Virus record (IMG/VR): IMGVR_UViG_3300050343_000159
DNA: 64,000 nt
Strand: one strand, 5' to 3'
Source of the DNA: a virus
Taxonomy: Duplodnaviria; Caudoviricetes
In this document: piece after piece, positions 21,010-32,150 of the stretch
Layout: each line of letters opens with the position of its first letter
Numbering within the stretch: position 1 is the stretch's first letter
The notes under the pieces: generated by a model
Databases searched by the model: none
Told to the model about the DNA's origin: nothing
Seen by the model: only the letters and a program-made list of their open reading frames with translations
Made by a program: the position numbers and the translations under genes

Positions 21010-21199
21010 GCTAAGCCCAACCTTTATCGGTAACAAACCTATTGTAGTCAAAACCAATACCCTTGTTAAGTACCAGTTCTCTAAGTGGAACACCAACTTA
21101 ACAGGGGTATTTCTTTGTGGTATGATAACAGGGTAAACAAAACTTTACATAAATAAACCAGTTACTTGTGTTGGTTTCAACATAAGTGTTTATACTTAC

Positions 21200-21318
21200 T
21201 CCCCTTAAACCAAGACCTATAGGGAGTCTAAAAACGTCTTTAATACCTGTATCTAAGGGTGATACAGGAATAGTAAAACCATCATTTCCCTGATGATCTT
21301 ACTTTTAAGTACATTACA
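21200..21318 (+). ncRNA. structured psbA 5' leader, candidate PhotoRC-II motif
   Basis: Hairpins AGAC/GTCT, CCTGTATC/GATACAGG (21246-68) and CATCA/TGATG directly upstream of psbA; TATACT -10 at 21191. Confidence 0.6.
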
Positions 21319-30080: not shown

Positions 30081-30313
30081 TGCAATCAGTAATCTATTCG
30101 AATAAAAGTCAAGAGTGTGAGAGAGCTATCATGCTTCTTTCAAATGTCCATGAAGATTTTCATGAGTATATTCTAGATGAAGACTTTACTGACAAACAAT
30201 TTCATGCAGAGTTCGGTGATACAGCAGAGTATCCACAGATTTCTATTGGGCTGAAACACAGAGGTGGATTGAAAGAAACCCTTCAGTTCATGAAAGATAA
30301 CAATATGTTCTAA
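30080..30313 (+). CDS. glutaredoxin-like protein (degenerate active site)
   Basis: QECER in place of CxxC; EFGDTAEYPQI; HRGG. Confidence 0.6.
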   Translation: MQSVIYSNKSQECERAIMLLSNVHEDFHEYILDEDFTDKQFHAEFGDTAEYPQISIGLKHRGGLKETLQFMKDNNMF

Positions 30314-30315
30314 CC

Positions 30316-30345
30316 TTGACATAAATAGTGTAGAAGTGTTATAAT
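30316..30345 (+). promoter_or_regulatory. consensus sigma70 promoter with extended -10 (also contains ATAAATA)
   Basis: TTGACA 30316-21, 18-nt spacer, TG.TATAAT 30340-45. Confidence 0.85.
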
Positions 30346-30351
30346 AACACT

Positions 30352-30400
30352 GTCGTTCATCAGAGGTAACTCTGACGCAAGTAAGTTGACTCGGAACGGA
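30352..30400 (+). ncRNA. glutamine riboswitch-like aptamer 1 (glnA/Downstream-peptide type)
   Basis: P1 CGTTC(30354-58)/GAACG(30394-98); P2 TCAGAG-GTAA-CTCTGA; CGCAAGTA junction; short AG/CT P3. Confidence 0.65.
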
Positions 30401-30585
30401 GCGTTCATCCTATGGTTGATTTCTTTTTATATACAACACTCAGTTGTTCTGATGCCGATAGCATTATGCTACGGATGAGGAGTAATGATGATCTTAACGC
30501 TCAAGTTAGGATTGAATTGGTGGAGGTTCTAAAAGAATCTACACCAGAGTGTCCATGGGACGCAAAAGGCAACTGAAGGAACGGG
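30401..30585 (+). ncRNA. glutamine riboswitch-like aptamer 2 with expanded, coding P2 loop
   Basis: P1 CGTTC(30402-06)/GAACG(30579-83); P2 TCCTATGG(30408-15)/CCATGGGA(30553-60); CGCAAA junction; AG-GCAA-CT P3; GAAG. Confidence 0.6.
30412..30576 (+). CDS. 54-aa hypothetical protein nested in aptamer 2
   Basis: MVDFFLYTTLSCSDADSIMLRMRSNDDLNAQVRIELVEVLKESTPECPWDAKGN; GGAG RBS at 30398-401. Confidence 0.6.
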   Translation: MVDFFLYTTLSCSDADSIMLRMRSNDDLNAQVRIELVEVLKESTPECPWDAKGN

Positions 30586-30617
30586 GCCTAAAAATCCAAC
30601 TACTTCAGGAGTATCAA

Positions 30618-30752
30618 ATGAAAGTCACGTATCGTGGTGTGTCGTATGACACAGTTGAGTATCAGAACAGACCCCAAGTTACCAAAAAAGTAACTGAAGT
30701 CTATCGTGGTATCAATCACACCGAAACTGTAAAAGTGGAGGTATCAAAATGA
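30618..30752 (+). CDS. DUF4278-like small protein (two YRG motifs)
   Basis: MKVTYRGVSYD...EVYRGINH; AGGAG RBS at 30607-11. Confidence 0.75.
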   Translation: MKVTYRGVSYDTVEYQNRPQVTKKVTEVYRGINHTETVKVEVSK

Positions 30753-30856
30753 ATATACTTGCCATCGAGCAAAGAAAGATTCTCAAGAAAAAAGCTATCA
30801 AGGTAGCTCAACTTGAGTTGACTAAGAAAACACTTGTTTGTTCTAACAACAAGTGA
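30749..30856 (+). CDS. basic 35-aa peptide
   Basis: ATGA-coupled; MNILAIEQRKILKKKAIKVAQLELTKKTLVCSNNK. Confidence 0.5.
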   Translation: MNILAIEQRKILKKKAIKVAQLELTKKTLVCSNNK

Positions 30857-30864
30857 TATAATTA

Positions 30865-30888
30865 AGGGAGGTAATACTCCCTTTTTTT
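30865..30888 (+). terminator. intrinsic terminator
   Basis: AGGGAG-GTAATA-CTCCCT followed by a T run. Confidence 0.75.
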
Positions 30889-30889
30889 A

Positions 30890-31051
30890 ATGGAAAAAGA
30901 TAAACTCAAACTAATAACCAGAAACCTAAGACTGTTGGTAGATGCGCTGGAGTCTGAAGTTTATTCTGATGTAAAGGCTTATACTGAACGAATGGAAGAG
31001 ACACTTCCTCCTCTCCCAGATTATGATGAGGTATTTGAAGATGATGAATGA
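30890..31051 (+). CDS. conserved hypothetical protein (53 aa)
   Basis: KLKLITRNLRLLVDALESEVYSD..DYDEVFEDDE. Confidence 0.55.
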   Translation: MEKDKLKLITRNLRLLVDALESEVYSDVKAYTERMEETLPPLPDYDEVFEDDE

Positions 31052-31496: not shown

Positions 31497-32150
31497 ATGG
31501 ATCAATCAGAACAGATGAAACCCGGAGCTAAACTGGTATCAGTTACACCTGATGCTGAAAAACATATAGCATTCTGTGCTAGGGTGAGTAATCCAAACAA
31601 CCAGGACAACGAAAAGTTTTCTGGCCTACTAAAGTATTGTATCAAGAATCAACACTGGAGTATTTTTGAACAGGCGTTCATGACTCTAGAGATCACAACC
31701 AACAGGGGTATCGCAGCTCAAATCCTGCGCCACCGTTCGTTCACTTTCCAGGAGTTCTCACAGAGGTATGCCTCTACAGATTTCCTAGGTGAGATTGAAC
31801 TGCCTGAACTTCGTCGTCAGGATGATAAGAATAGACAGAATAGTATTGATGATCTTGATCCTGAACTCATTGATAAACTTGAGAGACAGATGGTAACTCT
31901 CTTTAGTTCTGCCAACTCTCTGTATCAACAGATGTTGTCAGCAGGTGTTGCTAAGGAGTGTGCACGCTTTGTGTTACCTCTCGCAACACCAACTAAAATC
32001 TACATGACAGGCTCAATTCGCAGTTGGTTACATTATATTGATCTGAGATCTTCCAATGGAACTCAGAAAGAACATATGGATATTGCCAACAACTGTAAAG
32101 AGATCTTTGTAGAACAGTTCCCATCTATTGCAGAAGCTATGGAATGGTGA
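31497..32150 (+). CDS. thyX: flavin-dependent thymidylate synthase
   Basis: HWSIFE, RHRSFTFQEFSQRY signature, ECARFVLP, LRSSNGTQKEH. Confidence 0.95.
   Translation: MDQSEQMKPGAKLVSVTPDAEKHIAFCARVSNPNNQDNEKFSGLLKYCIKNQHWSIFEQAFMTLEITTNRGIAAQILRHRSFTFQEFSQRYASTDFLGEIELPELRRQDDKNRQNSIDDLDPELIDKLERQMVTLFSSANSLYQQMLSAGVAKECARFVLPLATPTKIYMTGSIRSWLHYIDLRSSNGTQKEHMDIANNCKEIFVEQFPSIAEAMEW

Follow-up and report, generated by a model that had tools for sequence, protein, structure and literature searches.

The closest described relatives of the element considered here are the glutamine riboswitches, which are of two types: glutamine-I, the glnA RNA motif of Rfam family RF01739 (Ames & Breaker 2011; Ren et al. 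2015; Klahn et al. 2018, PMC6212724), and glutamine-II, the Downstream-peptide motif of RF01704 (Huang et al. 2019, PMC6698751). Riboswitches of both types are ON switches for DUF4278/IF17 genes, and ligand binding is proposed to compete with a structure that occludes the ribosome-binding site (PMC6212724, PMC6698751). DUF4278 has been linked to IF17, one of the glutamine-synthetase inactivating factors (PMC6212724), and a tandem arrangement has been remarked on in print (PMC2864571). For cyanophages, genome papers merely list a glutamine riboswitch among the non-coding RNAs, and a survey from the Breaker laboratory, which concluded that phages rarely use riboswitches, counted only two glutamine riboswitches in cyanophages (PMC5473149). 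Here, we analyze a stretch of 64,000 nucleotides (nt), hereafter the window, from a marine, T4-like cyanomyovirus (IMG/VR record IMGVR_UViG_3300050343_000159). Positions 30352-30611 of its + strand, on which all parts of the module from promoter to terminator lie, probably form the leader of a small phage operon: a glutamine riboswitch with two nested cores, whose inner hairpin closes around a genuine 54-codon open reading frame (ORF). The element is a known riboswitch class in a new layout, which combines a nested gene, dual coding and nested cores.

As part of this reading, the outer core is probably a complete type-I (glnA) aptamer. Its P1 pairs CGUUC (30354-30358) with GAACG (30579-30583, within GGAACG at 30578-30583), and its P2 is the hairpin UCAGAG-GUAA-CUCUGA (30360-30375), which the RF01739 model also aligns as P2. 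The core-1 junction CGCAAGUA (30376-30383), including the AGUA loop-E strand (30380-30383), fits the RF01739 consensus CGGAAGUA. P3 pairs AGUUG (30384-30388) with CAACU (30570-30574), and the second loop-E strand, GAAG (30575-30578), fits the consensus GAAGGAACG. The last base of P3 is the first base of the ORF stop codon, TGA (30574-30576), and the GA of the loop-E strand completes it. The loop of this P3 appears to hold the second core in circularly permuted order: a GAG-capped P1' hairpin, GAACG-GAG-CGUUC (30394-30406, with 30394-30398 paired to 30402-30406), then the ORF hairpin, then the linker CGCAA. The Shine-Dalgarno (SD) sequence of the ORF, GGAG (30398-30401), is made of the closing G of P1' and its triloop, and is followed by CGTTCA (CGUUCA in the RNA), whose position, 30402-30407, was checked in the sequence. 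The ORF hairpin, which a first-pass annotation of the window had called P2, is formed by UCCUAUGG (TCCTATGG, 30408-30415) and CCAUGGGA (CCATGGGA, 30553-30560). That annotation described an 8-base-pair (bp) helix with one U·G pair and a 137-nt loop (30416-30552), an ATG (30412-30414) inside the 5' strand, and a product of 54 amino acids (aa) that ends in CPWDAKGN with its stop in the aptamer core, all of which is exact in the sequence. Within the gene (30412-30576), the 3' helix strand is read as Pro-Trp-Asp and the core-2 junction CGCAAAAGG (30561-30569), the linking strand of the inner core that includes CGCAA, as Ala-Lys-Gly.

The helix that encloses the ORF is conserved as a helix. In 79 distinct sequences its four basal bp are 100% paired, and at two pairs both partners have changed, in 13 sequences at one and in 21 at the other: pair 3 is C-G in 61, U-A in 13 and U·G in 5, and pair 4 is C-G in 50, A-U in 13, U-A in 8 and U·G in 8. 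The covariation score of the helix is 0.141 against 0.058 for shuffles, none of 500 shuffles reaches it, slid controls score lower, and an anchored analysis of 95 sequences agrees. Pairs 6-8 of the 8-bp helix are lineage-specific, being paired in ~35-55% of relatives. The claim that the ORF lies within a conserved long-range helix of a glutamine riboswitch thus stands. In ~20 of 120 loci from a junction-pattern search, a compact UNCG-capped hairpin such as UCCC-UUCG-GGGA takes the place of the ORF on the same core; therefore, the ORF-bearing hairpin is homologous to an ordinary aptamer hairpin.

Judged by codon usage, the last codons of the ORF are evidently frozen by the RNA at the nucleotide level. 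All 38 family members use GAC for their terminal Asp, whereas interior Asp codons are GAT 94 times and GAC 11 times, and all 38 use GCA for their terminal Ala, compared with ~37% GCA in the interior. ACGCA of the core-2 junction is invariant in 79 of 79 sequences, and the codons TGG GAC GCA are invariant at synonymous sites. The C-terminal WDA(N/K)xD tail is the aptamer core read in frame, and the dual RNA and protein coding proposed in the first-pass annotation is borne out, as the last five codons and the stop consist of aptamer-core nucleotides, from the core-2 linker, P3 and loop E, that are constrained at both levels. Phages of the S-CAM1 type have an ORF that ends 17 nt sooner, and in them the GGGACGCAAACGACUGAAGGAACGG core is preserved although it is no longer coding. 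The gp197 homologue there (S-CAM1, L039:692-900; also L074) carries the tail ...CDWYWSDHE, 17 nt short of the core, a natural uncoupling in which the core is retained.

The same nucleotides also enter the expression platform. CU(G/A)AAG holds the ORF stop, the last two P3 bases and the loop-E strand, and its partner CUU(C/U)AG adjoins the SD of the DUF4278 gene or shares bases with it. In the window, CUGAAG (30573-30578) and CUUCAG (30603-30608) form this alternative anti-SD helix (30573-30608), which shares nucleotides with outer P3, with the loop-E strand and with the SD of the gene that follows. The anti-SD helix is 6/6 paired in 83 of 98 unique leaders, and its partner strand varies with the stop codon: a UAA stop is matched by U in all 32 leaders that have one, and a UGA stop by C in 31 and by U in 25. 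The helix is present in the minimum-free-energy fold of the window. Nearest-neighbour secondary-structure energies, which include no tertiary or ligand energy, are -79.6 kcal/mol for the anti-SD state, -73.5 for the nested fold and -71.4 for a serial fold, so that the anti-SD state lies ~6 kcal/mol below the nested aptamer fold. This order of stability fits a switch that needs its ligand to reach the aptamer fold, and the anti-SD competition fits the published ON-switch behaviour on DUF4278/IF17 genes (PMC6212724, PMC6698751). The downstream gene has the SD AGGAG (30607-30611) and 44 codons (30618-30752; SD and gene together 30607-30752), matches PF14105 at 28.7 bits against a cut-off of 25.3, and contains the YRG motifs TYRGVSY and VYRGINH; a YRG peptide gene follows nearly every element. 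In many leaders (e.g., L109, L032, L037, L044 and Syn9 L038:870-925), GGAACGG and the anti-SD strand are separated by a further conserved hairpin, GGAUCC-AGCGAAAGCU-GAGAAGGUU..., which the lineage of the window lacks.

Since the start, the last codons and the stop of the ORF lie in aptamer strands, sensor folding and ORF translation must compete for the same RNA, and a translating ribosome and the folded sensor must exclude each other. From this we infer a ribosome-versus-sensor mechanism. In the folded, glutamine-bound sensor, both initiation signals of the nested gene would be buried, the SD within the P1' loop plus its closing pair and the AUG within a strand of the hairpin. In the same conformation, CUGAAG would be withdrawn from the anti-SD helix, freeing the SD of the DUF4278 gene (ON). 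Conversely, a ribosome on the nested ORF would occupy the hairpin strands, the core-2 linker, P3 and loop E, keeping the hairpin, P3 and outer P1 open, and a ribosome terminating at the ORF stop would melt the anti-SD helix. In this way a single sensor would drive the inner and the downstream gene in opposite directions and would be reset by the passage of ribosomes. The outcome of such competition might be a reciprocal switch, a kinetic reset, coupling, or tolerated interference. The first is possible, though less likely than not: the nested double-glutamine sensor may be a reciprocal ribosome-coupled translational switch, in which high glutamine buries the enclosed gene or genes and frees the DUF4278 SD, and low glutamine lets ribosomes load, hold the sensor open and reach the stop in the anti-SD helix.

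Alternatively, the nested gene may be a passenger. The hairpin loop would then be a tolerant site, the gene would be translated co-transcriptionally or from unfolded mRNAs, the sensor would work on the remaining molecules, and no cross-regulation would have been selected. We regard this as unlikely, though several observations speak for it. Peripheral hairpin loops vary freely, the compact UNCG-capped versions are ordinary aptamers by Rfam score, and loss or gain of the ORF is apparently frequent among close relatives. In addition, several unrelated-looking ORF families occupy the same loop, both hairpins, and different frames relative to the core. Distinct families in the inner hairpin end in WDAND, WDAKAD, IDAKAD or QDAND and are two-Cys proteins of 49-66 aa. 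The outer P2 hairpin also holds an ORF, of 66-75 codons, in Syn9 (L038:454-690), S-CAM1, Sf-FR1 and many metagenomic phages, with L039, L036, L035 and ~23 IMG/VR loci among the carriers, and this hairpin has its own covarying helix (UCUUA:UAAGA, UCUCA:UGAGA, UCCAA:UUGGA). These outer ORFs lie in other frames relative to the core, and their AUG, which has no SD, stands only ~12-15 nt from the predicted transcript start. Examples are Syn9 gp196 (66 aa), a family ending in 'IGRK' that reads GGA CGC AAG UAA through the core, and a signal-peptide-like family of 68 aa. An hhalign comparison of the gp197 and gp196 families gave a probability of 4.6% and E = 0.009 with two Cys aligned; we did not adopt homology between them, this result being suggestive only.

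A passenger gene does not readily account for how gene and sensor are interlocked. Among 101 nested loci with a long hairpin, parsed from metagenomic and isolate sequences, the ORF enters the core and ends at the same UGA or UAA within the anti-SD helix in 94. In all 101 the ATG follows CGTTCA by 3-10 nt, always within the helix strand, and the P1' loop invariably holds the SD. S-SKS1, Kyanoviridae and Prochlorococcus phages all share this precise interdigitation; therefore, physical interference is unavoidable, even if it is not 'designed'. By these counts, the recurrence of the ORF-in-hairpin layout in relatives is evidently far beyond chance. One further variant deserves mention: in L234, ~130-260 nt after the junction, GAAGGAAC is followed by a second CUGAAGGAAAC... 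and a further CGUUCAUCCCAUC, segments that may be a third core or a rearranged element.

The first-pass annotation had placed an aptamer 1 and an aptamer 2 in series. Relatives of the window, represented by 162 unique elements, point to a different wiring. Their inner pair is GAACG:CGUUC in 126 and CAACG:CGUUG in 36, with no mixed case, and their outer pair is CGUUC:GAACG in 127 and CGUUU:AAACG in 7, so that the outer P1 5' strand covaries with the last GAACG and not with the nearest. A scan for CAACG in the first 3' strand returned 63 riboswitch loci, all with CGUUG in the adjacent second 5' strand, and in these loci the first 5' strand is still CGUUC (or CGUUU) and the last 3' strand still GAACG (or AAACG); the one-sided pattern GGAACGGADCGTTGATC had no match in a riboswitch context. 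P3, which joins the five bases after the core-1 AAGUA to the five before the core-2 RAAG, is 5/5 paired in 133 of the 162, as AGUCG:CGACU (99), AGUCA:UGACU (17), AGUUG:CAACU (8, the type of the window) or AGUCU:AGACU (2). When variants of P3 position 5 were sought by a targeted scan, U faced A in 22 of 23 AGUCA loci, with exactly UGACU in 20; for positions 3 and 4, no variant sequences were found with the 21-nt core type. Across these alignments all four helices are shown to covary. Because the core-1 3' strand covaries with the core-2 5' strand, and the outer strands and P3 covary across them, the two cores are nested. With the cores nested, GGAG falls at the apex of the inner P1' hairpin, in its loop: the first-pass annotation had its position right, but not its overlap with the end of a serial aptamer-1 P1. 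The half of the earlier logic in which aptamer 1 gates the ORF rests on this wrong pairing, since the cores are nested and not serial. The earlier interpretation is in sum partly supported, right on the nested gene and dual coding and wrong on the serial wiring.

With two independent serial aptamers, the first (30352-30402) would gate the ORF through GGAG and the second (30402-30585), which the ORF splits, would gate DUF4278. It is improbable that the window works in this way, and serial tandem wiring was rejected on the covariation of the inner pair, the outer pair and P3. Serial pairing is mismatched in 31 of the 162 relatives (CGUUC or CGUUU opposite CAACG), whereas nested pairing never is. 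The halves of loop E are split between the cores in every locus, with AGUA in core 1 only and GAAG in core 2 only, and the covariation of P3 spans both. Moreover, serial P1s combined with P3 would make a double pseudoknot, and the nested fold is favoured over the serial one by 2 kcal/mol. On the other side, the serial P1 pairings of the window are compatible with its sequence and could form transiently during transcription, and the Rfam models give serial aptamers some support, as set out below.

At the Rfam gathering threshold, nothing matches over the riboswitch region of the window. The parts of an RF01739 aptamer are nevertheless present: P1 as CGUUC:GAACG (30354-30358/30579-30583), a P2 hairpin right after CGUUCA and followed by ACG both in the outer (30360-30375) and in the inner core (30408-30415:30553-30560), and, in the nested reading only, P3 with the AGUA/GAAG loop E. 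The window falls below the gathering score because the model penalises insertions of 137 nt and ~180 nt. For compact relatives, RF01739 itself settles on the nested alignment, with P3 opened by a 38-nt insertion, and scores them at 43.6 (L051), 40.3 (L094) and 39.6 bits (L073), above the gathering score of 35. For glutamine-II, RF01704 had no match at E ≤ 10 in 30250-30800, and the helix flanking core 2 is unlike the glutamine-II P2 of the structure paper; membership of core 2 in that family was rejected on both grounds.

Several observations weigh against the nested, ribosome-coupled reading. At a relaxed threshold, RF01739 aligns 30352-30402 alone, as a serial aptamer, at 29.4 bits and E = 2.4e-4 (gathering score 35), and no Rfam family spans the split part across the 137-nt insertion. 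The compact second cores of some relatives reach at least the gathering score by themselves, as self-contained RF01739 elements (L055 40.3, L079 40.2 and L045 35.5 bits). In the window, all four P1 strands are the common CGUUC/GAACG, so that its nested wiring rests on homology and on its own perfect AGUUG:CAACU helix. P3 is mismatched in ~29 of the 162 elements, and each core could form a 2-bp local P3 instead; the three self-contained second cores belong to this class, and some lineages may therefore be closer to serial. The conserved stretch of the ORF-enclosing helix is only 4-5 bp. The permuted inner core is a putative glutamine binder, and both translation of the ORF and the response to ligand are predictions from sequence. 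Finally, coupling could let a ribosome that terminates in the anti-SD helix switch on DUF4278, and the toggle would then be less clean.

The 54-codon ORF itself bears the marks of selection on its protein, and by these it is evidently a real gene. Its product matches phrog_504 at E = 1.2e-24 over the full length (residues 1-52 to profile positions 1-52 of 53; PHROG 504 is of unknown function). By tblastn, the ORF is present, annotated as a coding sequence, in 321 phage records, which come from myoviruses of Synechococcus and Prochlorococcus and from the divergent S-SKS1; its relatives are named hypothetical protein, Syn9 gp197 or 'T4-like GC 430'. A word-based protein search returned 36 close relatives, none functionally named, and no relative was confirmed by tblastn in 185,579 bacterial and archaeal species genomes. 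When 38 non-identical members of the family are aligned by codon, conservation is highest at second positions and lowest at third positions, and 2-4 synonymous codons are in use for each of the invariant residues (Cys12, Glu, Leu, Val, Pro and Cys48). The median ratio of nonsynonymous to synonymous substitution (dN/dS) is ~0.27, with a mean proportion of synonymous differences (pS) of 0.67, so that synonymous sites are near saturation. Of the checks named in the first-pass annotation, those for covariation of the enclosing helix and for conservation of the protein came out in favour of the nested gene. It is very improbable that the ORF goes untranslated and the 137-nt insert is conserved as RNA, e.g., as a structural spacer, and gene-like only in looks: the region folds better than shuffles (z = -2.99) and translation is deduced from sequence, but the codon pattern, the use of several codons for invariant residues, indels only in multiples of three, a frame open across the entire loop in 101 of 101 loci and a properly spaced SD all speak for a coding function.

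AlphaFold2 (48 sequences) models the product as a two-helix hairpin of residues 12-24 and 30-43 with a mean pLDDT of 75.6; the last residues, the tail dictated by the RNA, are disordered in the model. The gene can thus be described as a member of the PHROG 504/Syn9 gp197 family of two-cysteine helical hairpin proteins. Two other readings of it were dropped: that of a leader peptide acting by attenuation, as the ORF has no conserved Gln codons, and that of a lipoprotein or signal peptide at the gp197 N-terminus, where the segment is too short and lacks a lipobox.

The element sits in a self-contained module, ordered as promoter, structured leader, 54-codon ORF, DUF4278 gene, 35-codon ORF and terminator. 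The σ70-type promoter, TTGACA-18-TATAAT with an extended TG (30316-30345), matches the consensus at 12 of 12 positions and has a predicted transcript start at ~30352; its position is common to S-SKS1, SynMITS9220M01, S-SSM7 and Syn9. An intrinsic terminator with a 7-bp stem followed by a T-run (30864-30883) closes the module. Upstream, a thioredoxin/glutaredoxin-like gene ends at 30313, and a ThyX-like ORF (31497-32150) lies downstream. The Lys-rich 35-codon ORF (30749-30856) overlaps the DUF4278 stop in ATGA, ends just before the terminator and has no Pfam match. PhotoRC-II RNA (21187-21281, 71.1 bits) is the sole Rfam family at the gathering threshold in the whole window. Metatranscriptome assemblies contain the module, and one contig of 624 nt spans 30281-30906, although such contigs are no proof of transcription, transcript ends or translation. 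A variant metatranscriptome contig differs from the window within 30362-30373, in the outer P2 hairpin only, by G>T, T>A, T>A and two 1-nt deletions, which remodel the stem and loop of P2 and leave the flanks identical.

Aptamers are usually treated as compact non-coding domains. In these phages, whole genes are enclosed by helices of the aptamer, and some of their codons are also part of the ligand-binding core, so that the element offers a natural case of competition between translation and ligand sensing on a single RNA. The 'tandem' arrangement of these phages becomes a pair of nested cores, of which one is circularly permuted; this topology is new for a class with solved structures. The census changes as well: the element is present in 321-354 sequenced cyanophages, where Rfam misses it at the gathering threshold, compared with the two glutamine riboswitches of the earlier survey (PMC5473149). 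If our reading is true, protein-coding genes can be integral, regulated parts of aptamers, and phage riboswitches would be far commoner than surveys report, because scans with covariance models miss aptamers split in this way. By way of glutamine, an IF17-like peptide and a two-Cys protein family, the module would also link phage infection to the nitrogen status of the host. The first-pass annotation knew of no description of this arrangement; in the literature we searched, which did not extend to Ames & Breaker 2011, we likewise found no account of genes inside aptamer hairpins, of codons overlapping an aptamer, or of nested cores.

Compared with known systems, the element is closest to glutamine-I. 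It has the same P1, CGUUC:GAACG, the same P2 hairpin directly after CGUUCA, the ACG(G/C)AAGUA junction and a P3 flanked by AGUA and GAAG, and it shares the association with a DUF4278/IF17-like gene and the likely translational ON control. Unlike in glutamine-I, the P3 of the phage element is a long-range helix around a second, permuted core, and a phage hairpin (two hairpins in some phages) holds a whole gene. Aptamer nucleotides supply that gene with its SD, its start codon, its last codons and its stop, and the standard model scores the window below its threshold. With glutamine-II the element shares the core-2 linker GGGACGCA without AGUA, the position just upstream of a YRG/DUF4278 peptide gene and the same binding-site nucleotides (PMC6698751). 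It differs in the helix flanking GGAACGG, CUGAAG:CUUCAG, which is 20-50 nt away and overlaps the core residues equivalent to A33-G35; this helix looks like an anti-SD alternative rather than the glutamine-II P2. Like tandem elements, the phage leader has two ligand-binding cores of one class, but the cores are nested, with the outer strands pairing across the inner core, and do not stand side by side, so that the 'tandem' label in print does not suit the phage elements.

Outside the glutamine class, the group I introns of T4-like phages (td, nrdB and sunY) carry endonuclease ORFs in peripheral loops. They too are structured phage RNAs with an ORF in a hairpin loop, in which translation and folding may interfere. 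However, they are ribozymes with mobile endonuclease ORFs and not ligand sensors, whereas the riboswitch ORFs encode two-Cys proteins of 50-75 aa and share codons with the catalytic or ligand core. RNAIII/hld and SgrS/SgrT are dual-function RNAs, in which one RNA encodes a small protein and also acts through its structure. Translated upstream ORFs have been described in riboswitch leaders of M. tuberculosis (bioRxiv 10.1101/2022.06.01.494293). In dual-function RNAs and such leaders, however, the ORF is placed in the expression platform or next to the regulatory structure, whereas in the cyanophage element it lies inside the helices and core of the aptamer.

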